This document shows positions 2,531-64,000 of a stretch of DNA of 64,000 nucleotides, in pieces (the first letter of the stretch is position 1; each line of letters opens with the position of its first letter). Below the pieces are notes generated by a model. That model was not told the DNA's origin. It ran no database searches and was given only the letters and a program-made list of their open reading frames with translations. This stretch comes from Candidatus Omnitrophota bacterium (GTDB lineage: Bacteria; Omnitrophota; Gorgyraeia; Gygaellales; Profunditerraquicolaceae), in assembly GCA_028712255.1 (NCBI GenBank), contig JAQTQJ010000008.1, positions 7,773-71,772 of the forward strand, in the 5' to 3' direction. Made by a program: the position numbers and the translations under genes.

Positions 2531-2535
2531 AAAAA

Positions 2536-2587: not shown

Positions 2588-2596
2588 TTTATTATT

Positions 2597-3565: not shown

Positions 3566-3753
3566 TAATAAAGATAAATTTCTTGCTATTTATTATTAAA
3601 AATAGTAGAATTAAAATAGATGTGAGTCTGTGGATAAACGTATCATAACATAGTACCCCGCGCTAATAGCACCTGGCCTTAAAGGAATTGGGTCAGTGTT
3701 CGCCTGGTGGCGAAGAATTGTGCGGGTATGCCCTTGTGGGCAAGGAGGTGGTT

Positions 3754-3816
3754 ATGAGCTGTGGATCATGCGGACCAAAGAAACCAAAGAAAAAAGCAAA
3801 GAAGAAAAAGAAATAA
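3754..3816 (+). CDS. tiny Lys-rich peptide MSCGSCGPKKPKKKAKKKKK (20 aa), hypothetical
   Basis: AGGAGG Shine-Dalgarno 6 nt upstream of ATG; followed immediately by strong hairpin terminator; no homolog recognised. Confidence 0.35.
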   Translation: MSCGSCGPKKPKKKAKKKKK

Positions 3817-3823
3817 GTTTTAA

Positions 3824-3860
3824 GGGGCAGATCGATAATTTTTGATCTGCCCCTTGTTTT
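3824..3860 (+). terminator. rho-independent terminator GGGGCAGATCgataatttttGATCTGCCCC + T tract
   Basis: 10-bp perfect stem followed by TTGTTTT. Confidence 0.7.
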
Positions 3861-3872
3861 CTAGGAGGCCAA

Positions 3873-4730
3873 ATGCCCAGAACAATAACTTTCAAAGACT
3901 CACCCCTAACTTTAGTGGGAAGGGTTTTAAAAACCGAAACTTTCGCCCCGAATTTTATGGTTATTTCACAGGATTTAAAAGAGGTTAATTATTCGGATTT
4001 TTCAGGTAAAATAAAAATAATCGCTTCATTCCCATCTTTGGATACGCCGGTATGCGATTTACAGGTTAAAGAGTTTAATAAAAGAGCCTCTCAAATATCT
4101 TCAGAAGTAGTAATTTTGGGAATCAGTAAAGATTTACCTTTTGCCCAGAAGCGATTTTGTTCAATGAATGAAATCAAAAACGAAATTGTGTTATCTGATT
4201 ATAAATATTCTTCTTTCGGCATAAATTACGGCTTGCTTATTAAGGAATTAAATCTTTTAGCCAGGTCTGTTTTTATTGTAGATAAAAATGATGCCATTAG
4301 ATATATTCAAATCGTTGGGGAGTTAACTAATCCTCTTGATTATGAAGATGTCCTGAAGAACTTGGATACTGTAATTAAAAAACCGACACTTCCTTTAAAT
4401 AAGACGGCTTTACCTTCTAAATGTATTCCTTGTGAAGGTAAAGTTTTGCCATTACCTAAAGATAAAATAGAAGCAATGTTAGCTCAATCCCACGGTTGGG
4501 AATTAGTAGACGATAAAAAAATAGTTAAAGAATTTAAATTTGTAGATTTTATCGAAGCAAAATATTTTCTGGATCTTGTATCAGCTATCGCCCAGGACCA
4601 GGGGCACCATCCTACACTGACCTTAATTTATAATAAATTAAAAGTTACCCTGACTACGCACGTAGCCGGCGGCCTAACCGAGAATGATTTTATTATGGCG
4701 GGTATTATTAATGAGCTGGGGATAGCTTAG
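3873..4730 (+). CDS. tpx: thiol peroxidase (Tpx, atypical 2-Cys peroxiredoxin) fused to pterin-4a-carbinolamine dehydratase (PCD/DCoH) domain
   Basis: N-terminal 170 aa with SLDTPVC peroxidatic-Cys motif of Tpx; C-terminal 110 aa with E-x3-HHP..Y..H PCD signature (QDQGHHPTLTLIYNKLKVTLTTH). Confidence 0.8.
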   Translation: MPRTITFKDSPLTLVGRVLKTETFAPNFMVISQDLKEVNYSDFSGKIKIIASFPSLDTPVCDLQVKEFNKRASQISSEVVILGISKDLPFAQKRFCSMNEIKNEIVLSDYKYSSFGINYGLLIKELNLLARSVFIVDKNDAIRYIQIVGELTNPLDYEDVLKNLDTVIKKPTLPLNKTALPSKCIPCEGKVLPLPKDKIEAMLAQSHGWELVDDKKIVKEFKFVDFIEAKYFLDLVSAIAQDQGHHPTLTLIYNKLKVTLTTHVAGGLTENDFIMAGIINELGIA

Positions 4731-4731
4731 T

Positions 4732-6401
4732 ATGAACGATTTTTCTGTGCTTATTGGAGGCAAAGCAGGTTTTGGCATTGATAAATCCGCCACAGTAATA
4801 GGGGCAATCTTTAATCAACTTAGTTATCGCACCTATATCTACCGTGATTATCCTTCTCTTATCAGAGGAGGTCATAGCTTTTCCATTGTTCGCCTTTCAC
4901 AGGAAAGAATCGCCACCCATAAAGAAAAAATAGATTTTATTCTTGCTCTAAATCAGGATACCTTCAACTTTCATAAAAATAGAGCTAATGATAATTGTGT
5001 GATTATCTATGATTCAGATACGGTTAAAATAGAGGGAGCGCCAGCCAATGCTCAGCTTCAGGGGATTTCTGTATCAAAGATTATAAAAGAAGAGAATGCA
5101 AATGAGATAATGCTAAATAGTTGCATAATCGGCGCGCTTGTAAAAGCCTCCGGAGTAAATTGGCATGTCCTAGATAGTATTTTTAGAAAAGAGTTTACCA
5201 AAGAGACCGATCTTAATTTAAAGGTTGCACGCCGTGGTTTTGATGAAGCAAAGGAATTTAAAAAGATAGAACCTTTATCGCAGAATATCCTTCCCTTGTC
5301 TACCGGTAATCAAGCAGTAGGCTTGGGTTTAATTAAAGGTGGGCTTAAGGCGTATATATCTTATCCAATGACTCCAACATCTCCTATTTTACATTTTCTG
5401 GCAGAAATTGCTCTTGAGCATCACCTAAAGGTTCTTCATCCGGAAAGCGAAATCGGAGTAATCCTTATGGCCTTAGGGTTTTCTTATATGGGAGAGAAAG
5501 TTGCCGTAGGCACAAGTGGTGGTGGATTTTGTTTGATGACTGAGGGTTTAAGTTTTGCGGGAATGAGCGAGTTGCCTGTTGTAATTGTCGTCGGCCAGCG
5601 GCCGGGACCTTCAACCGGGTTACCTACATATTCTGCGCAAACCGATCTATATTTTGTCTTAAGTGCCGGCCAGGGAGAATTTACGCGTTTTGTTGTCGCT
5701 CCTGGAGATACGGAGGAGGCATATTTCTGGTCGGCTACTGCCATGAATATGAGCTGGGAATATCAGGTGCCTTCAATTATACTTACCGATAAAAATTTAG
5801 GAGAAGGGCTTTTTAATTTTGATATAAATTCTGTATCTCAAATAAAAGAAGCGGTGTCCTTATCGTGGGATGGAAAATCTCCTTACAAAAGATATCAGGA
5901 TACAGAAAATGGAGTTTCTCCTTTGGCTTTTGCTCTCGCTAAAGATGCGGTTATTAAAGTTAACAGTTACGAACATGATGAGTATGGTATAACTACTGAA
6001 GATCCTAAATTGACTATATCGATGCAGAATAAACGTCTGCGTAAGGAAAAATATTTAGCGCAGGAGCTTGATAAGATCGAAACCGTCAAAGTTTACGGAA
6101 ATGAAAATTCTGATGTTAGCCTGCTTTGCTGGGGGTCGAATAAAGGGGTTTGTATTGAGGCGGCTAACAACCTGGGTTTAAAAGTTATCCAGCCTTTAGT
6201 GTTATCTCCATTTCCAATAAAACAATTCCAAAAAGCTTTGGAAAGAACGAAAAAGTTAATTTCTATAGAGAATAATGCTACGGCTCAGCTGGGGCGCTTG
6301 ATTAAAACATTCGGCTTTAATGTGGACCAGAATATTCTAAAATATGATGGGCGTCCTTTTTCTTTGGATGAGCTGGAAGAGTTAATAAAAGGAACTATAC
6401 G

Positions 6402-11413: not shown

Positions 11414-11823
11414 AGATAACTGTTAATCAGGTTCCTCAAGAGGGCCTGTATTTAGAAGAGAAGATTAAGCCGGCGGAATTGGATCTTGAAACAGAACTAA
11501 TAAAATTTCGCTCAGATTTACTGGTAAAAACGCATATTTATCGTATCACTAATGCGCTTACGGTTGAGTTAAATATAGAAGCGATTATGTGCGCAAATTG
11601 TTCACGCTGTCTGGATGAGTTTGAATGGGAATTTAAAAAAGATGTGCAATTAAATTTCCCCTTAGATATTAGTACTGCTTTTATTGATTTGGATCCAGAC
11701 ATAAGAGAAGAGGTAATTTTAGATTACCCCATAAAGCCTTTATGTAAAATAGATTGTAAAGGGCTTTGTGTAAAATGCGGTAAAAACAAAAACGAAGGAG
11801 GATGTAACTGTGGCTTTACCTAA
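11410..11823 (+). CDS. yceD: YceD/DUF177 family protein (23S rRNA accumulation), conserved upstream of rpmF
   Basis: 137 aa, Cys-rich C-terminus (CKGLCVKCGKN..CNC), GTG start, classic position before L32. Confidence 0.75.
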   Translation: MKITVNQVPQEGLYLEEKIKPAELDLETELIKFRSDLLVKTHIYRITNALTVELNIEAIMCANCSRCLDEFEWEFKKDVQLNFPLDISTAFIDLDPDIREEVILDYPIKPLCKIDCKGLCVKCGKNKNEGGCNCGFT

Positions 11824-12010
11824 ACGAAAGCATTCAGCAGCGCGCGGCAGAAAACGCCGTACGCATTGGAAGATCAAAGCAACCACCTTGGCAGCTTGTC
11901 CACAATGCAAGGAATTAAAACTTGCGCACCGGGCTTGCTTGGTTTGTGGATATTACGATGGCCGCCAGGTTATTGAGATTAAAGTCAAAGAGAAGAAGAA
12001 AAAGAAATAA
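11810..12010 (+). CDS. rpmF: 50S ribosomal protein L32
   Basis: MALPKRKHSAARGRKRRTHWK N-terminus; C4 zinc motif. Confidence 0.9.
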   Translation: MALPKRKHSAARGRKRRTHWKIKATTLAACPQCKELKLAHRACLVCGYYDGRQVIEIKVKEKKKKK

Positions 12011-39650: not shown

Positions 39651-42446
39651 ATGGAAAACAAATTTATAATTATCCGCGGGGCAAAAGAGCATAATTTAAA
39701 AAATATCAACTTAGAGCTGCCGCGTAATAAACTGATTGTTATAACCGGTTTATCCGGTTCAGGAAAATCAAGCCTTGCTTTTGATACAATTTATGCCGAA
39801 GGCCAGCGCCGGTTTGTAGAAAGCCTCTCTAGTTATGCACGCCAATTCTTAGAGCAATTGCAGAAACCGGATGTAGATTTTATTTCAGGATTGTCTCCTG
39901 CAATTGCTATTGAACAGCGCTCTGCTGGTGGTAATCCCCGCTCAACCGTTGCTACCCAAACTGAGATCTATGATTATTTAAGGTTATTATTTGCAAGGAT
40001 TGGTAAAGTTCATTGCTATAAGTGCGGTGCTTTAATTCAGAGCCAAAGCGCCCAGGAGATAGTTGAAGCAGTTATGAACTTACTGTTGAATTGCGATATC
40101 CAAATTCTTGCACCTTTAATTCAAGGGAAAAAAGGCCAATACAAAGATATCTTTTTACAGATTCAAAAGTCCGGATTTATGCGGGCAAGAGTGGATGGTA
40201 AAATTTACGAAGTCAGCGACAAGATTAAATTAGCTAAATATAAAATTCATAGTATTGAAGTAGTGGTGGATCGTTTAAATATTAAAAACGATGTCCGTAG
40301 AAGGCTCACGGATTCTATTGAAACTGCTTTAAAGATTGGAAAAGGTACAGTTATCATTGTAAAGAATGCATCAAAAGATCTGGTCTTTAGTGAGCAATAT
40401 GCCTGCTTGAAATGCGGGATAAGCTATCCTGAAATTTCCCCTCGTAATTTTTCATTTAACTCTCCTTATGGAGCTTGTCCTGAATGTAATGGCCTTGGTA
40501 ATAAACTAAAATTTGATCCGGATTTAATCATTCCGGATAAAAAGAAGAGTATTAATGCAGGGGCTCTTGAACCATGGAAACGCGGAGGTAGAGGCTATAT
40601 CCTTTATTACCGTTGGCTTATTCGAGAATTAAGTGACCGTCTTAAGTTTGATTTGGATACTCCTTTTAATAAGTTGTCCAAGCATATTCAGAAAGTTGTC
40701 CTTTATGGAACGCAGGAAGTTATAGGTAGTAAGCCTTTTGAAGGAGTTATCCCGCATCTTGAAAGGTTATTTCATCAGACCGATAGCGATTATTTAAAAG
40801 AAGAAATTAGTAAATTTATGTCTACTCTGCCTTGTCCGGCGTGTAAAGGAGCAAGGCTTAAACCTGAGAGCTTAGCTGTATTGATTAACCAGAAAAATAT
40901 CTGGCAACTTAGCAAAATGCCCATAAAAGAGGCGATAAATTTCTTTTCTTCTCTTGAATTATCGGAAAAGGAAAAATTAGTAAGCTATCAGGCATTAAAG
41001 GAGATAACTCAAAAATTAAAATTCTGCGTAGATGTCGGTTTAGATTACTTGACTTTAGACCGTAAAAGTTCGACTTTATCCGGTGGAGAGGCTCAGAGGA
41101 TTCGCTTGGCTACCCAGGTAGGCAGCGGTTTGGTCGGGGTTTTGTATGTTTTGGATGAACCTAGTATTGGTTTGCACCAGCGAGATAATGAAAAACTACT
41201 TTCAACCTTAAAAGCATTACGGGATTTGGGAAATACCCTGGTGGTTGTTGAGCATGACCAAGCCACAATCCTTACTGCAGACCATATTGTGGATCTGGGG
41301 CCTGGCGCAGGAAGGCATGGGGGAAAGGTTATTTTTTCCGGTAATAGGGAAGAGCTTCTAAAAGATAAGGAATCTTTGACTGCGAAATATTTACGTAGAG
41401 AACTTTTAATTCAGACGCCTCTAGAAAGGCGGAATTGGCGTAAATGTAAATATATTGAAATAAAGGGAGCAGCTGAGCATAATCTTAAAAATATTGATTT
41501 ACGTTTTCCTTTGGGTACCTTTATTTGTGTAACCGGAGTATCGGGTTCGGGTAAATCTACATTAATTAGCGATATACTTTATCCGGCATTGGCGCAAAGG
41601 ATCTATAGATCGAAGGATAAGCCAGGTTTATTTAAATCCATAAGCGGTATCCAGCAGATCGATCAGGTAATTGTAGTCGATCAATCGCCTATTGGTAGGA
41701 CACCACGGTCAAACCCGGTTACTTACACCGGAGTTTTTAGCCATATAAGAGACTTATTTGCTCAGCTTCCGGAAGCCAAAATACGCGGGTATAAACCCGG
41801 AAGATTTTCATTTAACGTTAAAGGAGGCCGCTGTGAAGCTTGCGCTGGTGACGGCATAAAGAAAATTGAGATGCATTTTCTTCCCGATGTGTATGTTAAA
41901 TGTGATTTGTGTAAAGGGTTAAGATTTAATAATGCCACTTTAGAAGTAAAATACAAAGGCAGATCTATCGCAGATTGTTTGGAGATGACCGTAGAGGATG
42001 CTCTGGAATTGTTTGCCAATATCCCTAAGATAAAAAATACCCTGGGGTATTTATCCGATGTTGGTTTAGGTTATCTACAGTTAGGCCAAAGCGCTACTAC
42101 TTTATCCGGAGGGGAAGCCCAGAGGATTAAGCTTTCTTCACAACTGTCAAAGCGTTCAACGGGCAAGACGCTCTACCTTTTAGATGAGCCTACTACCGGA
42201 TTACATTTTGCGGATGTGGCCAGGTTAATATCGGTTTTAGAGAGATTGGTTGAACGTGGTAATACAGTGATTGTAGTTGAGCATAATTTAGAGGTAATTA
42301 AATGTGCAGATTTTATTATTGACCTTGGCCCTGAAGGCGGAGATAGGGGAGGAGAGGTCGTTGCCGCTTGTAGCCCGGGAGAACTTGTGGAAATAGAGAA
42401 TTCATATACCGCTAAATTCCTTAAAGAAGTTTTAATGAATAAATGA
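39651..42446 (+). CDS. uvrA: excinuclease ABC subunit A
   Basis: 931 aa; two ABC modules (GLSGSGKSS, GVSGSGKST Walker A; LSGGEAQR signatures), zinc-finger Cys clusters. Confidence 0.93.
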   Translation: MENKFIIIRGAKEHNLKNINLELPRNKLIVITGLSGSGKSSLAFDTIYAEGQRRFVESLSSYARQFLEQLQKPDVDFISGLSPAIAIEQRSAGGNPRSTVATQTEIYDYLRLLFARIGKVHCYKCGALIQSQSAQEIVEAVMNLLLNCDIQILAPLIQGKKGQYKDIFLQIQKSGFMRARVDGKIYEVSDKIKLAKYKIHSIEVVVDRLNIKNDVRRRLTDSIETALKIGKGTVIIVKNASKDLVFSEQYACLKCGISYPEISPRNFSFNSPYGACPECNGLGNKLKFDPDLIIPDKKKSINAGALEPWKRGGRGYILYYRWLIRELSDRLKFDLDTPFNKLSKHIQKVVLYGTQEVIGSKPFEGVIPHLERLFHQTDSDYLKEEISKFMSTLPCPACKGARLKPESLAVLINQKNIWQLSKMPIKEAINFFSSLELSEKEKLVSYQALKEITQKLKFCVDVGLDYLTLDRKSSTLSGGEAQRIRLATQVGSGLVGVLYVLDEPSIGLHQRDNEKLLSTLKALRDLGNTLVVVEHDQATILTADHIVDLGPGAGRHGGKVIFSGNREELLKDKESLTAKYLRRELLIQTPLERRNWRKCKYIEIKGAAEHNLKNIDLRFPLGTFICVTGVSGSGKSTLISDILYPALAQRIYRSKDKPGLFKSISGIQQIDQVIVVDQSPIGRTPRSNPVTYTGVFSHIRDLFAQLPEAKIRGYKPGRFSFNVKGGRCEACAGDGIKKIEMHFLPDVYVKCDLCKGLRFNNATLEVKYKGRSIADCLEMTVEDALELFANIPKIKNTLGYLSDVGLGYLQLGQSATTLSGGEAQRIKLSSQLSKRSTGKTLYLLDEPTTGLHFADVARLISVLERLVERGNTVIVVEHNLEVIKCADFIIDLGPEGGDRGGEVVAACSPGELVEIENSYTAKFLKEVLMNK

Positions 42447-44953
42447 AGAAAATAATTGTAAAGTGTCAGTTATTAGGAAAATTTTTCAATTTGTCATTCC
42501 TGCCCTCGATTAACACATTCGAGGGTAGGCTCCAGCGGGAATCTATAAAGAGATCCCCGATAAAGGCACTCGGGGATGACGGCGCATCCCCGTTCACTGG
42601 CTGGTTGCGAATAATTATTTATCTATTTATTTTTATTTTGTTTTTTAACGCCGTCAGCTTTGCTTATGAGGGCTCCAAGGAAACTGAATTGCTTTTTATG
42701 GCAAAAAAAGCTTATGAAGATGGGTTTTATGAAGTGAGCCTCGGTATGCTGGAAAGATTTCGGAATGATTTTAGTGGTTCAACTCAATTAAAACAGGCTC
42801 GCCTTTTAAGCGGACAATGTTATTTTCAGCAGGGCAGATATTTGGAGGCATTGAATATTTTTGAAGAATTACTCAATGATCCACAATGCGCCTCTTTTAA
42901 GGATGCTATTTATTTTTGGATGGCGGAGGTGCATTTTAAAGGCAATAATTTTGATAATGCTGCCTTGCTTTATCATAAACTAATAAATGAGTTTCCTCTT
43001 TCATCGTATACGGCTTCAGCCTACTATTCATTAGGTTGGTCGCTTTCCCAAACGGGAAAATATGACCAGGCACTGCAGGTTTTTATGAGTTTACTAGAGA
43101 AATTTCCAACTGAGCCACAGAGTAAAGATGCTGCTTTTAAATTAATTGAGTGTTTGTATAACCTTAAAAAATATGCAGAATTAGAGAATAAGGTGAAGTC
43201 TGTCCTTAGGCTTTACAATAATGATAGATTGCGGCTGCCCTACCTATATTTTTATTTGGCAGAGTCGCAATTTTACTTGGATAATTTCAATGAAGCAGTT
43301 AAGAACTACCTTAAATCAGTGCAGGCTTTTAAAGAGCAGAAGGCGCAGGTATTGGCAAAGTTAGGGCTTGGTTGGTCGTATCTTAAGCTTGCTAAATATA
43401 AAGAAGCCGAAGAGGTATTTGGGGATATTAAATATGGTAGTCTGGATAAAAAAAGCCTTGATATTTTTATATTGGGCCAGGCAGTATTAATGAATCAGAC
43501 TAATCGCGTTTATGAGGCTAAGAAACTTTATGAACAGCTTATTAATATAAGCAGCGATCCTTTGATGTGTATGCAGGCTTATTTAGGTAAAGCGGATGCG
43601 CTCTATAACCTAGCGGAATATAATCATGCCGCGGATGTTTATAAAGAAGGATTGGATAAGATTGACAGCTCTGTGGTGCCAGATGAGTTAACGAGTAGAT
43701 TGCGGTATAATTTAGCTTTAGCTTATATAAAAGGAGGGCAGTTTTCTTCAGGTATAGGCATATTTGATGATCTTATGGAAAAAAGTAAAGACCAGGCTGT
43801 TAATATCAAGATGCTTTTTCAGGTGGGCGACGCTTATAAGGATGAGGGTGAATTAGTAAAAGCCGAAGAAACCTATACGAAGATTCTAAAAAAATACCCT
43901 ACTGTAGCTTATGCAGATTATGCGCAATATCAAATTGGAGCTTTAAAGTTAAAAAGAGGCGATTATGATGGAGCAGTTATGATTTTTGAGTCCTTTTTAA
44001 AAAATTATCCTCAATCGAATTTTCTGGCGGATACGTTTTATTCGTTAGGTACAGCTTATTTTCAAAAAGCAGATTACAAAAATAGTCTCGAAATCTTTTC
44101 TAAGTTTCAGGGACAGTTCAAAGACAACGCTTTAGCCTCCCAAGCCTTATATATGCTTGGAAATTCGCTCCTTAATTTAGGAAAAATCAATGAGGCGCTT
44201 TCTATTTTTAAAGATACACTTAAGTTAGCTTCGCAGGATATTGAATTACGCCAGAAGGCTGAATATGAAATTGCCGATTGTTATTATAAGCTAGGGCAGG
44301 TAAATGAAGCCCTCAAGAGTTTTAAACTTTTACGTACTAAGTATCCGGATTCAAAACTTCTTCCTGATATTATGTGGTGGCTTGGCCAGTATTATTATCG
44401 TTGTGGTGATTTAGTTCTTGCGCAGAGATACTTCAATTCTTTAATAAAAGATTTTTCAGATAGCCGACTAGTTGCGGATGTGTTTTATGCTATGGGCCTG
44501 ATTTTTACTGCTGAGAATAAATTTGAACAGGCAGCTGAAAGTTTTAAAAAAGTACTTGAATTAGGTAGCGTTGATTTGAGAGCTCAAGCTCAAGTAGCAT
44601 TAGCAAAGGCATATTATAAGCTCCAGGATTATGAAAAAGCAAAGCTATATTACAGTAAAAGCCTTGAGGAGACAGATGTTTTGGATGCAGCTGATATTCA
44701 CTTTAATTTAGCTGAAGTATTTGAAAGTAATTTAGAGTTTGATGCGGCTATCCAGCAATATATCCTGGCTGCTGATTTAGACAAACAAGATATGCATTCA
44801 TCTGTATTGGCACTTTTGCGCGCAGCTAAACTTTATGAAGATAAAGAGGATTTTAAAGAGGCATTGAAGATATACAAAAGAGTCATTCAGAAGAATACGG
44901 AAGAAGCAAAATTTGCTCAGGAGAGGATTGATTGGATAAATTCAAATCAGTAG
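42443..44953 (+). CDS. large secreted TPR-repeat protein (836 aa)
   Basis: signal-peptide-like IIIYLFIFILFFNAVSFA then >15 TPR-like repeats (AxxYxxLG, ALxxY patterns); annotated start lies inside repeat element copy D so true start uncertain. Confidence 0.7.
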   Translation: MKKIIVKCQLLGKFFNLSFLPSINTFEGRLQRESIKRSPIKALGDDGASPFTGWLRIIIYLFIFILFFNAVSFAYEGSKETELLFMAKKAYEDGFYEVSLGMLERFRNDFSGSTQLKQARLLSGQCYFQQGRYLEALNIFEELLNDPQCASFKDAIYFWMAEVHFKGNNFDNAALLYHKLINEFPLSSYTASAYYSLGWSLSQTGKYDQALQVFMSLLEKFPTEPQSKDAAFKLIECLYNLKKYAELENKVKSVLRLYNNDRLRLPYLYFYLAESQFYLDNFNEAVKNYLKSVQAFKEQKAQVLAKLGLGWSYLKLAKYKEAEEVFGDIKYGSLDKKSLDIFILGQAVLMNQTNRVYEAKKLYEQLINISSDPLMCMQAYLGKADALYNLAEYNHAADVYKEGLDKIDSSVVPDELTSRLRYNLALAYIKGGQFSSGIGIFDDLMEKSKDQAVNIKMLFQVGDAYKDEGELVKAEETYTKILKKYPTVAYADYAQYQIGALKLKRGDYDGAVMIFESFLKNYPQSNFLADTFYSLGTAYFQKADYKNSLEIFSKFQGQFKDNALASQALYMLGNSLLNLGKINEALSIFKDTLKLASQDIELRQKAEYEIADCYYKLGQVNEALKSFKLLRTKYPDSKLLPDIMWWLGQYYYRCGDLVLAQRYFNSLIKDFSDSRLVADVFYAMGLIFTAENKFEQAAESFKKVLELGSVDLRAQAQVALAKAYYKLQDYEKAKLYYSKSLEETDVLDAADIHFNLAEVFESNLEFDAAIQQYILAADLDKQDMHSSVLALLRAAKLYEDKEDFKEALKIYKRVIQKNTEEAKFAQERIDWINSNQ
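42492..42581. repeat. GC-rich MITE-like element family ii copy D (divergent)
   Basis: GTCATTCC..CCCTCGAttaacacatTCGAGGG..GGGAATCTataaagAGATCCCC..GGGGATGACG; overlaps 5' end of TPR gene. Confidence 0.65.
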
Positions 44954-45062
44954 GTCCCGCTGCGTAACATGTGCCAAAATTCTCTTCGATAATTTTGGCA
45001 CACTCCGCGGGACTAATTCGCGCATTGACTTACTCACACTTACGTGTTCGTAAGTCAAGCGC
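44954..45062. promoter_or_regulatory. two stacked palindromes after TPR gene: GTCCCGC..TGTGCCAAAATT..AATTTTGGCACA..GCGGGAC (terminator-like) and GCGCATTGACTTAC..GTAAGTCAAGCGC (operator-like)
   Basis: seen in sequence; second palindrome sits directly upstream of a sigma70-like promoter. Confidence 0.5.
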
Positions 45063-45076
45063 TCATTAAAAAATAG

Positions 45077-45104
45077 TTGACTTATTACTGATTGTTTATA
45101 GAAT
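45077..45104 (+). promoter_or_regulatory. putative sigma70-type promoter TTGACT-N16-TAGAAT for the pilus locus
   Basis: consensus-like hexamers about 20 nt upstream of RBS AAGGGAGG of the first gene. Confidence 0.4.
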
Positions 45105-45124
45105 AAACAATTAAGGGAGGCAAT

Positions 45125-45331
45125 ATGATTATTGAAATCGGTATAGTTGCTGGTGAGATTTGGCATTACCTGGACCAAAAGGGAGAGGTTAGTTTAACTG
45201 AGCTGAGCAAGAATATTGATCGTACAAAAGAGAATATTTTAATGAGTTTAGGCTGGCTTGCTCGGGAAGGACATGTCATTTTAGTGAAAACAAATAATGA
45301 CTACCGGATTTCTTTAAGGAAAGATGTCTAA
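45125..45331 (+). CDS. small winged-helix DNA-binding protein (DUF2582-like)
   Basis: 68 aa; IG..AGEIWHYL ... LSLGWLAREGHV pattern matches DUF2582 wHTH family as remembered. Confidence 0.55.
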   Translation: MIIEIGIVAGEIWHYLDQKGEVSLTELSKNIDRTKENILMSLGWLAREGHVILVKTNNDYRISLRKDV

Positions 45332-45752
45332 TTCTATAGGGATAAGTCTTCCTATACCTTTTCAGAAGGAGCCTAATTGTACTAAAAAAGGGATAATTCT
45401 TTTAATCGTTCTAGGGGTAATTCTTTTGGTGGTGACCCTAACTACTGTTATCTTAAGAATTATCTCTAACCAGTCACGTTTAACCCATCATCAGGTGAGC
45501 CGTATTCAAGCCCAATATGCTGTTAAGGCAGGAGTGATTTATGCTTTGGATAAACTACGCAGGAATGATGACGTAGGATGGCCTGCTAGCGGAGAATATA
45601 TAAAGACTATGTGTAAAACTGGTTGTGATATTAATGAGCCAGATCTGCCTAAATCAATTCAGCGAGTAGATATTACTGTATATAACACTGGGACAGGAAT
45701 TTCTGGCACAAGGAAGATAAGCGCCAAAGCCACCTATACTTACTCACCTTAG
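45324..45752 (+). CDS. PilX_N/GspK-like minor (pseudo)pilin
   Basis: 142 aa; N-terminal hydrophobic helix GIILLIVLGVILLVVTLTTVIL followed by QAQYAVKAGVIYAL (PilX N-terminal domain pattern); no canonical G/FTLIE site. Confidence 0.5.
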   Translation: MSNSIGISLPIPFQKEPNCTKKGIILLIVLGVILLVVTLTTVILRIISNQSRLTHHQVSRIQAQYAVKAGVIYALDKLRRNDDVGWPASGEYIKTMCKTGCDINEPDLPKSIQRVDITVYNTGTGISGTRKISAKATYTYSP

Positions 45753-45972
45753 CAGTTTATTTAATAAGATATTATAATCTAAGTAAGTTTATTATAATGG
45801 CGTATGCAAAGGCATACTCCATTATTCGTCGCTGTTAACTAATGCAAGTAAGTATAAGTAAGTATATATAAAAAAATACTTGACAAGATAAGTGGATTAT
45901 GTTTTAATTAAAACCATAGTACTTTATAGTTAAGCTACTGTGTATGCCTGATAGAGAGGAAAACTGGTATTC

Positions 45973-46164
45973 ATGTCAAGACTGATAGATATTGATGAAT
46001 TAGCAGATTATTTAAAATTAAAGAAACAAACTATCTATAATTGGCTTAATCAGCGTAAGATCTCAGGGATTAAGGTGGGAGGTGTCTGGAGATTTGACCG
46101 TAAGGATATTGATAATTGGCTAAGGTCTAAGAAACGTGAGAGTACTTCGGGAGATGGACAATGA
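45973..46164 (+). CDS. excisionase-family HTH (HTH_17) DNA-binding protein
   Basis: 63 aa; LADYLKLKKQTIYNWLNQRKISGIKVGGVWRFDRKDIDNWL; same family as the Xis-like ORF at 62608 (about 40% identity by eye). Confidence 0.65.
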   Translation: MSRLIDIDELADYLKLKKQTIYNWLNQRKISGIKVGGVWRFDRKDIDNWLRSKKRESTSGDGQ

Positions 46165-47708
46165 ATTCTTTAGGTATATATTTTGGAATTAAAGATATCT
46201 GCCTGGTAGAAACCAGCGGAAAAAAGATTGTAAATAACATCCGCCTGCCGCATCCTAATTTAGCGATGGCAGAATTAGAAGAAAAAGTCCCATCGGATAT
46301 AAAACTAATGGCTATGCTCAAAGATGCTTTTCGGACTTACCATGTAAGTGCCGAAGAAGCTTTCTTTTGCCTTTCCGGGCAGGATTTAGTTATTCGTACT
46401 TTTGAAATTCCGCTTCTTCCTCAGAGCGAATTAAAAGGGGCGGTTAATTTTGAGGCAAAGAAATATATACCTTTCAAACTTGAGGAACTGGATTATGATT
46501 TTCAGGTTCTGTTTAACAAGAAAGATAAAACAAGCTTAGTGCTTTTTGTCGGCATCAAGAAGGAAATTTTGGCAAATTATGTTTCTATTGCCAAGCAGCT
46601 TAACCTTAAAGTTAGTATGCTTGAGTACTCGGCTTTTAGTATTTTACGGTTTTTAAAGCTATCCGGCCTAAAAGAAACAGGCATAGTTGCAATTCTTTGT
46701 TTTGATTTAAATAACGAAGATGAGTCAAATTTCACTGTTTTTGAAAACGGTTTTTCTTTATTTAGCCGTGATTTTGTTCTAACTGGAGAGCCTGCGGGAT
46801 TTGAGCAAACTGTTGAAGCGGATTCTATTGCTAAGCAGGAGAAATTAAAAAATGAAATCCGTGTTTCTCTTGATTACTATAACCGTAAATTTCCGGGAAA
46901 AAATATTAAGACTATTTTTGTTATCTCAGATAAGAATAGCTCTACAGAGGTAAATTCTTTTTTTACGGAATCTGCTATACCGGTAAAGTTTGTAGAAACT
47001 CAAAAAGTTTTTGGTAAAGACGTTGAGTATTCTTCGATACTTGCTAAAAGTTTTTCTGCTGCTTTATTTAGGTCTGTGCCTCTTAAAACAAAAATTAATT
47101 TGATTGGAGCTAGGCTTAAAGCAACTAAGGAAGCTGCAGAGGGATGGAAAACAGCTGGTTTATTAGAGGGTATAAAACTTGACTTAAAATTTATTATTTT
47201 AGGTATTTTTTTGTGCGCGGCTGTTTTTGGGTATGGATTAATGCGTAAGAAGCCTATTCAGGAAAAATTGGCTGAAATTAGGAGCCAGCGCATAAAAATC
47301 AGCTTTATGCCTGCTGATGACAGTTTTGATAGCTTAACCGCGTTAAGTGGAAAATATAGAAAAAAAATCATTACCTTAGGAAACTTAATAAAAAATCAAA
47401 AGTATGTTACTTACCCGCTTGATGCGATCCCGGCAGCTTTACCTAAAGGGGTATGGTTAGATAGTTTCAGTTTTAACCAAAAAAAGGACCTTACGGCAGA
47501 GCTTACGCTTAGTGGAAAGGTTTATCTTGATAATACTGACCAGGAATTTGATTCGGTAAACATTTTTCTTACAAACTTGAAAAAAGAACCTTTGTTTTCC
47601 AAATATTTTAAAGAAATTTCAATAAGTTCTATTGATCAAAAACTGATAAATAATAAAACCGTAACGGTATTTAAGATAATTTGCCGTAGTCTTCCGGAGA
47701 AAAAATAG
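46161..47708 (+). CDS. pilM: type IV pilus assembly protein PilM fused to PilN-like domain
   Basis: 515 aa: N-terminal ~340 aa actin-like PilM (starts GIYFGIKDICLVETS), single TM (FIILGIFLCAAVFGYGLM), then ~170-aa periplasmic PilN-like region; followed by pilO-pilP-pilQ. Confidence 0.75.
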   Translation: MNSLGIYFGIKDICLVETSGKKIVNNIRLPHPNLAMAELEEKVPSDIKLMAMLKDAFRTYHVSAEEAFFCLSGQDLVIRTFEIPLLPQSELKGAVNFEAKKYIPFKLEELDYDFQVLFNKKDKTSLVLFVGIKKEILANYVSIAKQLNLKVSMLEYSAFSILRFLKLSGLKETGIVAILCFDLNNEDESNFTVFENGFSLFSRDFVLTGEPAGFEQTVEADSIAKQEKLKNEIRVSLDYYNRKFPGKNIKTIFVISDKNSSTEVNSFFTESAIPVKFVETQKVFGKDVEYSSILAKSFSAALFRSVPLKTKINLIGARLKATKEAAEGWKTAGLLEGIKLDLKFIILGIFLCAAVFGYGLMRKKPIQEKLAEIRSQRIKISFMPADDSFDSLTALSGKYRKKIITLGNLIKNQKYVTYPLDAIPAALPKGVWLDSFSFNQKKDLTAELTLSGKVYLDNTDQEFDSVNIFLTNLKKEPLFSKYFKEISISSIDQKLINNKTVTVFKIICRSLPEKK

Positions 47709-58866: not shown

Positions 58867-59658
58867 ATGAGTGATGAGCTAAGTAAGCTTTGGAGACCAC
58901 AAGATGATAAGGGAAATCGCTTGTATTCTGGCATTCCCAATTGTCTTCTCATGGAGATAATAAATGGGACATACAAACCTACTGAATCTCAGGTATTACT
59001 TTTTATTGCTAGAATGAGTTGTGGAATGATGAGGAGAGAACAAACAAATTACCTTGGATTAGGTGATATTGAAGCAGAAACAGGTATTAAAATACCGCAT
59101 TTGTCTAAGATAATCAATGAACTTATTAGGAAAGGTATTCTACTAAGAGGTAAGGAATCAGCCAAAAAGTATAAATACGCTATAAATCTTTATTACTATG
59201 GTCTACCAATGAAGTATTACAAAATTAGGCATAGTCTTAAAGAAATTAAGGATGATGAAGAAGTATTTGGTGTGTTAGATTACAGATTTGGTAAGCCTGT
59301 AAAAGACGAGAGGGCTATAGTTGTATATAATTCAAAGGGTTATGAGAAGCAAGAAAATGGCTATATAAAGACTGATATAAATACTGATAGAAAGATAGAT
59401 ACTACTGTTAAAAATAACTCTTATAATTCTTTAGTATCTAGTTTTATGAAAGATATTAAAGAACACGATTGTGCAGATACAATACTAAAACACATGCAGC
59501 AAATGCATGTTAATGGCTATAATCCCGATCTTATAATTTTAGCTTATGATGCTGAATGGATACGTAAGGGCTACGTAGCCCCAGATGTCGGTAAAGGCAA
59601 TATTGAAACAGCTGAAGGAAAATTTAAACATTGGCTAAAAATACGTAATAATGTTTAA
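58867..59658 (+). CDS. replication protein with phage lambda O-like N-terminal domain
   Basis: 263 aa; ESQVLLFIARMSCGMMRREQTNYLGLGDIEAETGIKIPHLSKIINELIRKGIL matches Phage_rep_O N-terminal pattern. Confidence 0.55.
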   Translation: MSDELSKLWRPQDDKGNRLYSGIPNCLLMEIINGTYKPTESQVLLFIARMSCGMMRREQTNYLGLGDIEAETGIKIPHLSKIINELIRKGILLRGKESAKKYKYAINLYYYGLPMKYYKIRHSLKEIKDDEEVFGVLDYRFGKPVKDERAIVVYNSKGYEKQENGYIKTDINTDRKIDTTVKNNSYNSLVSSFMKDIKEHDCADTILKHMQQMHVNGYNPDLIILAYDAEWIRKGYVAPDVGKGNIETAEGKFKHWLKIRNNV

Positions 59659-59738
59659 TTAATACATCAATTTGACAAAGTAAATGCATCTATTTGGAAG
59701 GAAAGTTAACAAAAGAAGACTCTTGTAATGAGGAGCGT

Positions 59739-59975
59739 ATGATAATTAAATGTAGAGAATGCAAAAAGGAAATTTCTTCAGAAGCTAATTCTTGTCCGCA
59801 TTGCGGATGTCCACAGAAACAAGAACAAGTAGGTGTGCCTAAATGTCCTACTTGTAACTCAACAGAAGTTGAAAAAATATCAGCGGGAGACAAGGCAATG
59901 ACAATGTTCCTTTGGGGTTCAGTTAAGAATTTTACTTGTACCTTTAAGTGTAGAAAATGTGGTCACAAATGGTAA
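59739..59975 (+). CDS. small double zinc-ribbon protein
   Basis: CRECKK..CPHCGC and CPTC..CRKCGH pairs. Confidence 0.5.
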   Translation: MIIKCRECKKEISSEANSCPHCGCPQKQEQVGVPKCPTCNSTEVEKISAGDKAMTMFLWGSVKNFTCTFKCRKCGHKW

Positions 59976-59994
59976 CTATCAGATAAGGGAAACT

Positions 59995-60258
59995 ATGAAT
60001 TCCATAAATATTATATATACTTGTTTGATTATTTTTGGTATTTTGTTTATTTGCAGAGAAATTATTTGCTGGTGGTTTAAAATGAATCAGGTTGTGAATC
60101 TACTTACTGAAATACGGGATATTTTACATGCTAAAAAGAATAAAGGAGAAGGATCTAAACAACCTATAGCGAAACTACAGGAAAAAGAAACAGTCATATT
60201 AAAAGATTTTTTTGGAAAACCGCATAAGGTAACTTCATTTAAGGATGAAAATAAATGA
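59995..60258 (+). CDS. small membrane-anchored hypothetical protein
   Basis: N-terminal TM IIYTCLIIFGILFICREIICWWF. Confidence 0.4.
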   Translation: MNSINIIYTCLIIFGILFICREIICWWFKMNQVVNLLTEIRDILHAKKNKGEGSKQPIAKLQEKETVILKDFFGKPHKVTSFKDENK

Positions 60259-60755
60259 AAGTAAAAAGGCTAGTTTGTTTATTAGTTTTAGTATTATCAA
60301 TGAATGGATGCGTTACAGTAACTCCCTTGATCCATAAAGAATTTGAAAGTAGCAGGACATTTCAATCTACTTATAATGAAGTCTGGCAGGCAGCGGTTAA
60401 GTCCGCTACTTCTACGGGAGATGCTATACTAGCAGCTGAGAAAGAGGGCGGGTTGATATCTTTTGATAGGAGGGTTTCTCTCAATATTAGACCAAAGGCC
60501 GACCTTGCTTTAATTCCCAAAAACCGATATTGCTGGAATCCGCACATTTCAGTTAATTTAATTCTAAAGGAATTGAATCCTGAGAAAGTGAGTGTAAGTG
60601 TCAAAGTGAGGATTACTGCTACATGCGGTGGCAATCTTGGTTTTACCTTCCCAGCACTAGCTGATTTAGGTTCTAGCGGTGAACTTGAGAAGGAGTATTT
60701 AGATAAAATACAAGATTTTCTTATTGGAGATAAATCACCGAAGGATAGTAAATAG
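60255..60755 (+). CDS. lipoprotein, paralog family A (second copy)
   Basis: 166 aa; lipobox SMNGC; shares motifs with ORF 56213. Confidence 0.65.
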   Translation: MKVKRLVCLLVLVLSMNGCVTVTPLIHKEFESSRTFQSTYNEVWQAAVKSATSTGDAILAAEKEGGLISFDRRVSLNIRPKADLALIPKNRYCWNPHISVNLILKELNPEKVSVSVKVRITATCGGNLGFTFPALADLGSSGELEKEYLDKIQDFLIGDKSPKDSK

Positions 60756-61110
60756 CTGTAATTTAAAATAATCAAACAAAACTGTTATTTATTACGAAAT
60801 AAAGGAAGAAAAGAAACAGAATAGTACATAATAGGGTAAATTACAAGCATTTCCCTTCACTTTGCCTCAAAAGACAATATAGCTTACCGAAGTCAAATAC
60901 TAAACTTACCGAAGAATGGGTATAGTCGGTTCCGAAACTACCCCGAAACACACCGAAGCGAAATACGACCCCAGCTATAAATTAATTATAGAGTTATAAA
61001 ACAATTTAGCTATAATAATGTTAATAGCTATAGGACGATTTACTGTTCTTAGCAGTATTTCTGTATTGCTGTTTTTTAAGAAGGATGTATTCTTATAAGT
61101 TGATGATAAG

Positions 61111-61752
61111 ATGAAAAAATGGTTAAAAATACTAGCTGACTTAAGAAGAGTTTCAAGAAGTGGAGCAGTCAAGTATGTCCCTTTAGATAAAGGAAAGGGT
61201 TTTTTTATTTTTAAGAAGCCAGAAGCTCCCTTAGAGTATACTTCTTATGAGCTAGATGCTAAGGGCATTGATAGGAAGAAGGTGGAATTTAGATGTATGA
61301 TATTTACAGGCAAAGAGATAATCTATGCGAACCAGAAAAGAAAGATTGGAGCTTACATAAAGAAGTATGATAAAGAGATTAATTCTTCTCCGGAGTTTCT
61401 GATAAGTAATTTCTTGGCCGCAAGAGACTATAAAATTCAATCCCCAAAGTATGCTAGACCAATTATGGATCTTTTTAGAAGGCTTGGTTTATTAAGAGAA
61501 AAGAGAGGCAAAGTTAAGATACCAGATACTACCACACAAAATCTAAGATGGTTTATAAGGGAGCAGTTTGAGTTACTCTCTAAGAAGAAGCCTTTACCAA
61601 TAGAAATCTTACAAAGAAAATTAGAGCGAGAAGTGCATAGGTTATTCCCAGATAACCCCGAAAAAGCCGAGAAGTACTATTGGAATGACTTAACTGTAAG
61701 GAGGTTAATTGAAAAGCATCTGCTATTAAGAAGAATTATCTTTAAGAAATAA
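61111..61752 (+). CDS. hypothetical basic protein
   Basis: 213 aa, K/R-rich; preceded by TTACCGAAG iteron-like repeats. Confidence 0.45.
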   Translation: MKKWLKILADLRRVSRSGAVKYVPLDKGKGFFIFKKPEAPLEYTSYELDAKGIDRKKVEFRCMIFTGKEIIYANQKRKIGAYIKKYDKEINSSPEFLISNFLAARDYKIQSPKYARPIMDLFRRLGLLREKRGKVKIPDTTTQNLRWFIREQFELLSKKKPLPIEILQRKLEREVHRLFPDNPEKAEKYYWNDLTVRRLIEKHLLLRRIIFKK

Positions 61753-61863
61753 TTTTCTTAATGTAACGATTTAAAACAAGTTTTGATTTATTATAGACCC
61801 TGTAAGCAAAAGCTTATGGGGTTTTTTTATTTGTCTAACAATCTTTAAAAAGGAGAGGAAAAA

Positions 61864-62124
61864 ATGGGTAAGGGCGATGGGAAGCTAATAGACAGGATTC
61901 AAAAGAGCGGAGTAGTTTTAAGCATTTGGAAGAATCCTGGTGTTAAGGATGGTAAGGTAGTTGGGATAAATACCTTTGTGATTAATAGGTGCTATCTAAA
62001 TAAGAAAGATGGGAAATGGTATTATCCCAAAGACTTCAAAGAGTCAGATTTGCCGGCAATTAAAGAAGCAATAGATGAGTATTTATTAAGATCACAGGAG
62101 GATAACACTATGAATGGGAGTTAA
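61864..62124 (+). CDS. hypothetical protein
   Basis: 86 aa; strong RBS AAAGGAGAGG. Confidence 0.4.
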   Translation: MGKGDGKLIDRIQKSGVVLSIWKNPGVKDGKVVGINTFVINRCYLNKKDGKWYYPKDFKESDLPAIKEAIDEYLLRSQEDNTMNGS

Positions 62125-62306
62125 TGATAAGGCGAGGCAAGTATGATACTTAGCATTATACTAAGTTAGTTATACTTTTACTCATGAATAATACTACTTA
62201 GTAATACTCATAAAACATACTAATTAATAATACTCATGAATGATACTTATTAATAATACTCTAGTATTATACTTAGTTATGATACTAGACAATAATTACT
62301 AGAAAG

Positions 62307-62495
62307 GTGGATAAAATGTTAACTCCAATTAAAGCAATACGAAAGTGGTGTCTTAGTTGTCAAGAATCTTGTTCTCTAGTACGGTATTGTGATGATACTG
62401 AATGTCCTTTATTTCCGTATCGTATGGGTAATAATCCAAAGAGGAAAGGCATAGGTAGAAAAAAATCAAATCCTACACAAGAAACCAATACTTGA
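62307..62495 (+). CDS. small Cys-rich (zinc-binding) phage-type protein
   Basis: 62 aa; CLSC..C..C..C pattern, basic tail; preceded by TAATAATACTC iterons. Confidence 0.45.
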   Translation: MDKMLTPIKAIRKWCLSCQESCSLVRYCDDTECPLFPYRMGNNPKRKGIGRKKSNPTQETNT

Positions 62496-62607
62496 GTTGA
62501 TAATTTTGAATGGAAGATTGCTTATAAGTAAAAGCATGCCATTAAAATACTTATTTAAAAAATGCTTAGTTGAGTTGGGTAAAATAGGGAATAGGAATTT
62601 TATTCTT

Positions 62608-62790
62608 ATGGATAAACGACTTTTAAATATAACAGAGCTATCAGAGTATTTACGTTTGACTAAAGGCACTCTTTATGTATGGGTGTGCCATAAGAAAATT
62701 CCTTATTTAAAGATCGGGAGTTCGCTAAGGTTTGATTTAACTCAAATTGACAACTGGCTTAAAGGGAGAAGGGTCGCAGAAATGACTTGA
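62608..62790 (+). CDS. excisionase-family HTH (HTH_17) protein, Xis-like
   Basis: LLNITELSEYLRLTKGTLYVWVCHKKIPYLKIGSSLRFDLTQIDNWL; Met at 62608 preferred over track start 62497. Confidence 0.6.
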   Translation: MDKRLLNITELSEYLRLTKGTLYVWVCHKKIPYLKIGSSLRFDLTQIDNWLKGRRVAEMT

Positions 62791-62817
62791 CAAACTGAAT
62801 AAACTATACTAAAGTAT

Positions 62818-63003
62818 ATGAAGGATATGGGAAAGAGATATTTCATAAGAGACTTAGAGAAGATACTTCAGGTAAGCCGTAGGACTTATTTCTATTGGGA
62901 GCAAACCGGAAAAGTGCCTAAGCCCAAGAGGACTACTATGGGTAATTATCGTTATTGGACTAAAGAAGAGATTAACAAACTAAAGAAGCTGATAGAGGGA
63001 TAA
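62818..63003 (+). CDS. small HTH DNA-binding protein (AlpA/Xis-like), immediately upstream of int
   Basis: 61 aa; ILQVSRRTYFYWEQTGKVPKPKR..YWTKEEIN. Confidence 0.5.
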   Translation: MKDMGKRYFIRDLEKILQVSRRTYFYWEQTGKVPKPKRTTMGNYRYWTKEEINKLKKLIEG

Positions 63004-63004
63004 A

Positions 63005-64000
63005 ATGGGAGTTATTCTTAAAAGAGATAATTGGTATGTAGATTACTATTTTAACGGAAGAAGAAAAAGAGAGAAAATCGGCACTAGCAAAAAGCTGGCT
63101 GAAATTGTGCTCAAGAAGAGAAAAGTTGCTATAGCTGAAGGTAAGTTCCTAGATATTAAGAAAGAGCAGAAAGTAAGGTTTGATGAATTTGCCGATGAGT
63201 ATTTAGTGGTGCATTGCAAATCTAATAACAAGTCGTGGTTTAAATCTGATTATTTTAACCTTAAGAATCTAAAAGCTTATTTCGGTAATAAATACCTTCA
63301 CGAGATAACCCCGAAAGACATTGAGCAATACAAAGCAGAGAGGATTAAAGAAGTTAAAAAGCAAAAGACGGAAGACAAAGAGGAGCAGTTTATATCTCAT
63401 GCAACAGTAAATAGGGCGTTAAACTGCCTTAGTTCTTTGTATAATCGTGCTATTGAATGGGGTAAAGCAACAGATAACCCCATGAGTAAAGTGAAGCTTT
63501 TTAAGGTGCCTGATAAGCGAGTTCGTTTCCTTGAGAAAGAAGAAATAGACAAGCTCTTATCTCATTGCTGCGAGCATCTAAAGCCAATAGTTATTGTTGC
63601 CTTACATACTGGTATGCGTAAGGGTGAGATCCTGGGGCTTAAATGGCACGATATAGATATTAAAAGAAATATAATCCACCTATACGATACCAAGAACGGA
63701 GAAAAGAGAGAAGTGCCTATGAACGAAGTTGTGCAGAAGACCGTCATAGGCGTTCTTAAAAACCCAGAAAGCCAATATGTCTTCTGTAATAAAGATAATA
63801 AACCTTATGGGAATGTCAGAAAATCATTCTTTACAGCTCTTAAAAAGGCGGGTATAATTAACTTTCGCTTCCACGATTTAAGACATACCTTTGCTTCTCA
63901 GCTTGTTATGTCAGGAGTTGATTTAAATACTGTTAGAGAGCTTCTGGGGCATAAATCCATTGAAATGACCCTTAGGTATAGCCATCTATCTCCAGACCAT
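63005..64000 (+). CDS. int: tyrosine recombinase / phage integrase (3' end beyond window)
   Basis: 332 aa in window; N-terminal SAM-like domain, catalytic region with R (HTGMRKGE), HDLRHTFAS, LLGH motifs; catalytic Tyr not reached. Confidence 0.85.
   Translation, partial: MGVILKRDNWYVDYYFNGRRKREKIGTSKKLAEIVLKKRKVAIAEGKFLDIKKEQKVRFDEFADEYLVVHCKSNNKSWFKSDYFNLKNLKAYFGNKYLHEITPKDIEQYKAERIKEVKKQKTEDKEEQFISHATVNRALNCLSSLYNRAIEWGKATDNPMSKVKLFKVPDKRVRFLEKEEIDKLLSHCCEHLKPIVIVALHTGMRKGEILGLKWHDIDIKRNIIHLYDTKNGEKREVPMNEVVQKTVIGVLKNPESQYVFCNKDNKPYGNVRKSFFTALKKAGIINFRFHDLRHTFASQLVMSGVDLNTVRELLGHKSIEMTLRYSHLSPDH

Follow-up and report, generated by a model that had tools for sequence, protein, structure and literature searches.

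How are the type IVa pili of the Omnitrophota controlled, and where did the genes for that control come from? The Omnitrophota are an uncultivated phylum, probably largely parasitic or predatory, in which type IVa pili are near-universal and are thought to serve attachment to host cells; the survey reporting this makes no mention of regulators (PMC10066038). The question is raised here by positions 44954–46164 of a 64,000-nucleotide (nt) stretch of DNA, hereafter the window, from a Candidatus Omnitrophota bacterium (assembly GCA_028712255.1, contig JAQTQJ010000008.1, positions 7,773–71,772). These positions lead into a pilM-pilN fusion gene, and an earlier reading of the sequence, the original prediction, saw in them stacked palindromes, a promoter, a winged-helix protein, a PilX-like pseudopilin and an HTH_17 protein suggested to be recruited from, or cross-regulated by, an integrative element farther along the window. 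In our analysis the regulatory head of the pilus locus is real: it encodes two small proteins predicted to bind DNA and one that resembles a pilin, and its promoter looks genuine. We lean, with somewhat better than even confidence, towards the view that the region is a control head, inherited across the Omnitrophota, for the type IVa pilus locus and organized as two separate sigma-70-type transcription units. That its anatomy, its vertical inheritance and the identity of the repeat at its upstream end are all as described below, taken as one joint claim, we hold with high confidence.

The answer turns in large part on the HTH_17 protein, a 63-aa product encoded at 45973–46164 on the + strand. 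A profile search places it firmly in HTH_17 (PF12728; E = 6.2e-16, 58.8 bits against a gathering cut-off of 27), and it has the form of a small stand-alone MerR-like winged helix without a coiled coil, with the strand-helix-helix-wing-helix fold seen in Xis and BldC. A search with PilMN, taking one genome per species, yielded 65 Omnitrophota-type loci, and in 64 of them the HTH_17 gene lies directly 5' of pilMN, the one exception being a truncated contig; the order uvrA, TPR, DUF2582, PilX-like, HTH_17, pilMN, pilO is complete in 57. An ATGA overlap joins the HTH_17 stop codon to the pilMN start, and this 4-nt overlap is found in 56 of 64 loci. The HTH_17 gene is the best-conserved one in the stretch: identity across its orthologues ranges from 67 to 98% (median 84%), as against 59–87% for DUF2582 (median 76%, 58 species), 39–76% for PilMN (median 51%), a median of 40% for PilO and 18–70% for the fast-evolving PilX-like protein (median 42%). 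It is more conserved than PilMN in 55 of the 55 loci compared, and its identity follows that of PilMN with a Spearman coefficient of 0.83.

The same comparison separates this gene from those of mobile elements. An orthologue profile run over 1.55 Mb recovered 65 HTH_17 copies at 106 bits or more, and its sole other match was the Xis-like gene of the window, at 60.5 bits. Across 711 kb in 66 orthologous loci there are no integrase-like open reading frames (ORFs), and within the window the nearest integrase lies 17 kb away. The pilus HTH_17 shows neither the patchy, horizontally transferred distribution nor the adjoining cognate integrase or attachment site by which a Xis-type gene may be recognized, and it groups with chromosomal, vertically inherited homologues rather than with element-borne Xis genes, a result that the original prediction had named as speaking against itself. 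Among the best 120 homologues listed (DUF2582, HTH_17), those with an organism name belong to the Omnitrophota, bar two HTH_17 proteins labeled "Patescibacteria group" and unclassified "bacterium". The nearest non-orthologous relatives of the domain, examined at the 50% identity level (P0369, P0372, P0383, P0419, P0455), include proteins made of 2–8 tandem HTH_17 domains as well as receiver and PilZ fusions. The tandem-domain relatives fit a DNA-reading module that works in arrays, and these are architectures of transcription factors.

The second predicted DNA-binding protein, of 68 aa (45125–45331, + strand), is a winged helix of the DUF2582 family, as had been proposed. It scores well above threshold against PF10771 (E = 4.7e-15, 55.9 bits; gathering cut-off 24.2) and matches the solved family members 2L02 (E = 8.4e-9) and 2L01 (E = 0.007) in the PDB; a literature search returned no mention of DUF2582. 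Overlapping its stop codon by 8 nt is the gene for a 142-aa protein (45324–45752, + strand), which the original prediction had labeled a PilX_N-like pseudopilin: 25 of 61 orthologues match PilX_N (PF14341; best E = 5.2e-5), whereas the protein of the window gives no match even at E <= 1. It has a pilin fold, with a long N-terminal helix against a beta-sheet, and a leader with a conserved KKG followed by (V/I)ILFIVIG, in which position +5 is Ile, Phe or Leu and never Glu. In family and fold it behaves as a PilX/GspK-type minor pilin. The window copy has a 15-residue N-terminal extension (45324–45392) relative to most orthologues; since the usual start position reads GAG here, its translation starts at the ATG that overlaps the DUF2582 stop.

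Each of these two pairs of genes is preceded by a predicted promoter, and both promoters have -35 and -10 hexamers with the 16–18-nt spacing of the sigma-70 type. The first, P1 (45068–45104, + strand), comprises an A-tract at 45068–45073, the -35 hexamer TTGACT at 45077–45082, a 16-nt spacer and the -10 hexamer TAGAAT at 45099–45104. The original prediction had named these hexamers, and they are borne out: a consensus scan matches 10 of 12 positions, and in 58 aligned species each -35 and -10 position is conserved at 90% or more, within a common pattern of an A-tract, TTGACTTAT, a 16-nt spacer, TA(A/G)AAT and a GGAGG ribosome-binding site. For a promoter predicted in this way, such conservation among species is far stronger evidence than the match to consensus. 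P1 is also retained directly before DUF2582 in a distant clade where the upstream neighbors are ExbB and ExbD. In this clade (L037 at 1173–3124, L045 at 3077–4986 and about 15 other loci) four genes stand between TPR and DUF2582, namely those for ExbB, ExbD, a 211–227-aa ORF without a Pfam match and a small Cys-rich membrane protein. P1 would drive the DUF2582 gene together with that of the PilX-like minor pilin.

The second promoter lies in the spacer between the PilX-like and HTH_17 genes, which is 220 nt long in the window and 123–418 nt across the loci; the conserved cis-elements of this spacer, the promoter among them, had no place in the original prediction. The spacer DNA is 75–88% identical in many species, including some in which PilMN is only 40–50% identical. 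P2 itself (45864–45908, + strand) consists of an A-tract (45870–45876), the -35 hexamer TTGACA (45880–45885), a 17-nt spacer, a TG at 45900–45901 and the -10 hexamer TTTAAT (45903–45908). In an alignment of 60 species (A1), with the consensus TAAGTAAGTnTAAGTAAGTnTATATAAAAAAACACTTGACAAAATAAGTnTnTTATGTTTTAAT, the TTGACA and the pattern T-G-n-T-n-n-A-n-T are invariant. A hidden small ORF was considered as the cause of this conservation and discarded, there being stop codons in all six frames. Downstream, the 5' leader (45909–45972) has a conserved CCATAGTAGTTTATAG stretch in most species, with about 20 extra nt in the window.

Just upstream of P2 are two tandem direct boxes of the form AAGTAAGT (45846–45853 and 45856–45863, + strand), which have a 10-bp period, span about -69 to -52 of the promoter and form a proposed operator. 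They are at least 90% conserved in the 60 species, and the alignment has no indels from the boxes to the -10. In about 45 of the 60 loci 24 nt separate the start of the second box from the -35, and the first box lies 10 nt further upstream. Of the hits to the tandem box in 775 kb, 75 fall at this site and 11 elsewhere, so that it is almost exclusive to P2. The single box occurs seven times in the window, against 3.0 expected, and three of these are in the HTH_17 spacer. Inside the 17-nt spacer of P2 is a third in-phase box, AGATAAGT (45886–45893, + strand); a box-like 8-mer lies exactly 30 nt after the second box in about half of the species, and three species that have lost 1 nt from the A-tract show a matching 1-nt shift of the third box, such that the register is kept. 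Farther upstream are the conserved motif CGTCGCTG (45827–45834, + strand; from the consensus of the same alignment) and a conserved block, ATTATAAT-CTAAGTAAGT-TTATTATAAT (45771–45798, + strand), which has a single AAGTAAGT box within AT-rich flanks; it is visible in most species, and in many loci as 18–39-nt matches of 83–100% identity. Between the two transcription units is a hairpin (45794–45825, + strand; inverted repeat I12) that has a different yet self-complementary sequence in other loci and is followed by T-runs in several species. Transcription of the P1 unit may end at this hairpin; a terminator scan made no call for it in the window.

The palindromes at the upstream end of the region tell a different story from that of an operator. 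Directly after the TPR stop is a first hairpin (44954–45013, + strand; inverted repeats I6 and I24), with arms at 44970–44984 and 44988–45002 nested within arms at 44954–44965 and 45002–45013. It is followed (45014–45069, + strand) by a junction, TAATTCGCGCA, a second hairpin, TTGACTTAC...GTAAGTCAA, with arms at 45025–45039 and 45044–45058, and then GCGCTCATTAA; this part is the conserved core of a repeat family and includes the palindrome that had been called operator-like. The segment 44954–45064 folds into two hairpins at -51.5 kcal/mol, as against a mean of -21.7 for shuffled sequences (z = -11.0), and 0 of 200 shuffles fold as well. The strong palindromes are where they had been placed, and the label "terminator-like" is half true: the stem is there and the T-run is not. 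After the stem of the first hairpin comes TAATTCGCGC, no T-run stands behind either of the two, and a terminator scan made no call at 44954–45064. The distance from TPR to DUF2582 is 171 nt in the window against 49–65 nt in the four closest relatives (L001, L002, L004, L005), which lack the hairpins and keep P1; only a scattered handful of species (L006, L037, L050) have similar two-hairpin units in this place.

Elsewhere the unit is common. A scan of metagenome contigs with the junction TAATTCGCGCA-N2-4-ACTTA found it on at least 120 contigs, with 88 full copies having a complete second hairpin and the GCGCTCATT end, and only four of the 87 loci with a full repeat carry homologues of the pilus locus. 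The conserved hairpin of the family has the form ACTTA...TAAGT, and pairing is kept at its two variable stem base pairs in 164 of 164 cells (82 distinct copies, six pair combinations); the first hairpin of other copies is in the same position and variable in sequence. The repeat is oriented with both flanking genes in 39 cases and against both in three, and 36 copies have a ribosome-binding site and start codon within 30 nt downstream. Several loci have more than one copy (L037 at 3200–3400 and 11690–11932, L108 at 1607 and 6193), with tandem arrays in L037 at the TPR-DUF2582 site and after pilC, and further copies were seen in L067–L186. What had been read as stacked palindromes is thus a single copy of a structured repeat, dispersed and strand-specific, which is located here at the 3' end of the uvrA-TPR transcript. 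The family may be a new miniature inverted-repeat transposable element (MITE) or a transcribed RNA structure. Rfam gave no match at gathering thresholds in the whole window, the sole hit of an E-value scan of 44900–46000 was RAGATH-7 (E = 0.44, 17 bits against a gathering score of 112), and a literature search returned no paper that connects intergenic palindromes with the Omnitrophota. A second palindromic repeat, GGGGACGGTTCT...AGAACCGTCCCC, occurs at several intergenic sites in L007, L010, L011, L022 and L035, either 5' of DUF2582 or in the PilX-like-HTH_17 spacer.

What might then read the boxes at P2? By analogy with related folds, HTH_17 is a candidate to which we give a nearly even chance. 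P2 would express HTH_17 first and then the pilMNO-secretin-pilBC operon, and as the HTH_17 stop overlaps the pilM-pilN start, the protein is probably made together with the pilus assembly proteins. It would bind the two AAGTAAGT boxes, which at about -69 to -52 are spaced by one helical turn, as head-to-tail multimers that may extend to the third in-phase box within the P2 spacer, and it might thereby govern P2 and, through this promoter, the entire pilus operon. Because P2 is near consensus, repression would be the likelier direction. DUF2582 probably controls P1 or acts jointly with HTH_17.

Several observations weigh against this proposal. The assignment of the boxes to HTH_17, as against DUF2582 or a factor encoded elsewhere, is drawn solely from the analogy of fold and the geometry of the direct repeats. 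BldC, the model for such a mode of binding, is absent from both the phmmer hits (E <= 1) and the profile hits (E <= 10) of HTH_17 against PDB sequences, and the best profile hit there is an excisionase, the Pukovnik Xis gp37 (4J2N, E = 0.02). The third in-phase box is found with at most two mismatches in only about half of the species. A near-consensus promoter could be constitutive, and the extreme conservation of HTH_17 could come from another constraint, e.g., a protein partner; a larger regulon or a global regulator, with box sites elsewhere in the genomes, is also possible. Finally, no canonical terminator was called between the two units in the window, and hence read-through from P1 into the P2 unit is possible.

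Among the alternatives, the one closest to this proposal has DUF2582 as the reader of the AAGTAAGT boxes and controller of P2, with HTH_17 in another DNA-related role or as a protein partner. DUF2582 too is a predicted DNA binder that is well conserved and always in the same locus, the single box of the conserved block lies just 3' of the unit formed by it and the pilin, and no computed result separates the two proteins. Typical dimeric winged-helix proteins prefer inverted repeats. Direct repeats with a 10-bp period suit monomeric winged helices of the Xis/BldC type better than dimeric ones, and it is commoner for an operon to be autoregulated through its first gene, so that we regard a DUF2582 reader as rather unlikely, if well worth keeping in mind. 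One might also see HTH_17 as no transcription factor at all but as a stoichiometric partner of the pilus machine, coupled to PilM and acting in DNA uptake or in anchoring PilM. Type IV pili mediate DNA uptake in other bacteria, and such a role would accord with the ATGA coupling and with a conservation exceeding that of any structural pilus gene. The operator-like boxes before its own gene would need a separate explanation under such a role, and the best 150 representatives of the HTH_17 family include no fusion to PilM, the fusions checked being to receiver, PilZ or Panacea domains or tandem HTH_17 arrays; we consider it improbable.

The two remaining alternatives come from the original prediction, and both fare worse. 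Recruitment of the pilus HTH_17 from the integrative element, or cross-regulation by the Xis-like protein encoded there, has in its favor that both proteins belong to PF12728 and align with E = 5.5e-14, and that their fold class is common to excisionases, with which the fold may plausibly share a very ancient ancestor. The Xis-like gene is indeed the closest relative of HTH_17 in the window, which is true and trivial as it is the only other HTH_17 gene in the 64 kb. The two proteins are about 40% identical over 52 residues, far below the identity among pilus orthologues, and differ in the recognition-helix region (QTIYNWLNQRK in the pilus protein and GTLYVWVCHKK in the Xis-like one), and the element lacks the tandem box, having only a single AAGTAAGT at 58555. 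Given the fixed position of HTH_17, its co-divergence with PilMN, this low identity and the want of an integrase at the orthologous loci, recent recruitment is unsupported, and the gap in profile scores adds to the case against it; we judge this origin, and cross-regulation with it, the most improbable of the readings considered here. A literature search found no paper linking excisionase-type HTH proteins with pilM. The palindrome at 45021–45062 as a genuine operator is scarcely more credible. It lies just upstream of P1, and its left arm and loop carry on the minus strand, at 45029–45044, the sequence CGTAAGTGTGAGTAAG, which has one mismatch to the tandem box and is the only other such site in the window. 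We tried this match as operator evidence and set it aside: 10 of 100 shuffles yield two or more matches, and the same stem with its CTCACACTTACGTGTTCG loop recurs in repeat copies on unrelated contigs (e.g., L085), for which reason we take the resemblance to be coincidence. Since the palindrome is absent 5' of P1 in most species, the four closest included, and belongs to a dispersed repeat that is mostly found away from pilus genes, we place it outside the pilus control logic.

The wider setting, mapped from the Pfam results on the proteins of the window, is of 38% G+C with nearly all long ORFs on the + strand; the PilX-like and DUF2582 proteins have 100% identical counterparts in a metagenome-assembled "Candidatus Omnitrophica bacterium" at NCBI. 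Upstream of the region are genes for UvrA (39651–42446) and the 836-aa TPR protein (42443–44953). Downstream, the pilM-pilN fusion (46161–47708, + strand) is followed, up to about 55649, by genes for PilO, a 147-aa protein, a secretin, PilB (T2SSE), PilC (T2SSF) and several N_methyl pilins. This stretch has two tandem near-identical 130-aa pilin genes (53292–53684 and 53751–54143), which differ by two residues and have unlike upstream regions, in that only the first is preceded by a TTGACA-16-TAGAAT. The 3' end of the window, from 58300 to 64000, is plausibly an integrative element, with 32–34% G+C, a weak Phage_rep_O-like gene, the Xis-like HTH_17 gene (62608–62790, + strand), a MerR_1 gene 3' of it (62818–63003) and a tyrosine integrase that starts at 63005 and is cut by the window end; no tRNA that might serve as an integration site was found in the window.

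These patterns make the region a compact and testable candidate for pilus control: two proteins of fewer than 70 residues and a phased 8-bp box before a promoter that is near-invariant across species whose pilus proteins are only 40% identical, with both proteins and DNA small enough for work in vitro or in E. coli without cultivation. Complete genomes of the phylum, in which such sites could be sought, number 176 in a 2026 preprint (10.64898/2026.06.07.730766). They also carry two cautions for genome annotation, in that a Pfam family shared with a nearby Xis gene is no sign of recruitment from that element, and a widespread structured intergenic repeat could mislead operator predictions made for these genomes. 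A bolder reading, which we offer as speculative and on the unlikely side, is that HTH_17 is a phylum-wide master switch of the type IVa pilus that forms a filament on three boxes and, independently, that the repeat is a new strand-specific RNA or MITE family absent from Rfam. A short filament on the three in-phase AAGTAAGT boxes would wrap the upstream element together with the -35 hexamer of a promoter that is otherwise constitutive; if true, pilus regulators would gain a new class and the Omnitrophota their first functional cis/trans pair.

How does such an arrangement compare with known systems? Dedicated transcriptional control encoded in or near the pilus cluster has parallels in PilS-PilR and FimS-AlgR, two-component pilus regulators with sigma-54 or response-regulator activators. 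The Omnitrophota locus differs in having two proteins of fewer than 70 residues, no sensor domain, a sigma-70-type promoter and a proposed direct-repeat operator. The minor pilin of the P1 unit resembles PilX, GspK and GspI in its long N-terminal hydrophobic helix and small sheet. GspK-type proteins are without Glu5, as is the PilX-like protein, which differs from these minor pilins in its very small size (about 120 mature residues), in the location of its gene apart from the other pilins (53292–55649) and in its translational coupling to a DNA-binding protein. As for the two-hairpin unit, short multi-copy intergenic palindromic units are known from E. coli, as repetitive extragenic palindromes (REP) and bacterial interspersed mosaic elements (BIME), and from Neisseria, as Correia elements. 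The unit resembles these in behavior, being likewise short, intergenic, palindromic, multi-copy and sometimes tandem; it is often co-transcribed with its flanks, has imperfect terminal inverted repeats (TTAATTCGCGC ... GCGCTCATTAA) and is patchy at orthologous sites. It stands apart in a sequence probably unrelated to theirs, its pairing of a variable with a conserved hairpin, its strand bias of 39 to 3 and its frequent position directly before a ribosome-binding site.

For HTH_17 itself the excisionases and recombination directionality factors of the HTH_17/AlpA type (4J2N, the GIsul2 excisionase 8C3T, RdfS 8DGL) have the family PF12728 in common with it, and they multimerize on phased direct repeats much as proposed here. 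The pilus protein differs from them in its fixed position, in vertical inheritance without a nearby integrase or attachment site in any of 66 loci, and in its proposed control of a promoter rather than of recombination. Antitermination of the P. aeruginosa AlpA type was considered as an analogue and rejected, as AlpA is larger, with a 21Q-like fold and DNA-contact residues at about 128–142; it reads a single GGGACG element between the -35 and -10 (PMC9371919). The nearest parallel is BldC of Streptomyces, a transcription factor that forms head-to-tail multimers on direct repeats spaced by one helical turn, with footprints from -50 to -80 on the whiI promoter and from -60 to -10 on the smeA promoter (PMC5859096). 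Like HTH_17 it is a single domain of about 65 residues with no dimerization or effector domain, and the geometry of its repeats matches that of the AAGTAAGT boxes at P2, of which the DNA side alone is seen here. Its consensus, AATTxxxxC, is unrelated to the AAGTAAGT box, and BldC is a pleiotropic developmental regulator encoded alone, whereas HTH_17 is the first cistron of a pilus operon and overlaps pilM. In light of these likenesses and differences, the system proposed here, by analogy, is a small winged-helix protein that would regulate its own expression through a direct-repeat operator and that, across the phylum, lies within the pilus operon and would be translated along with it.

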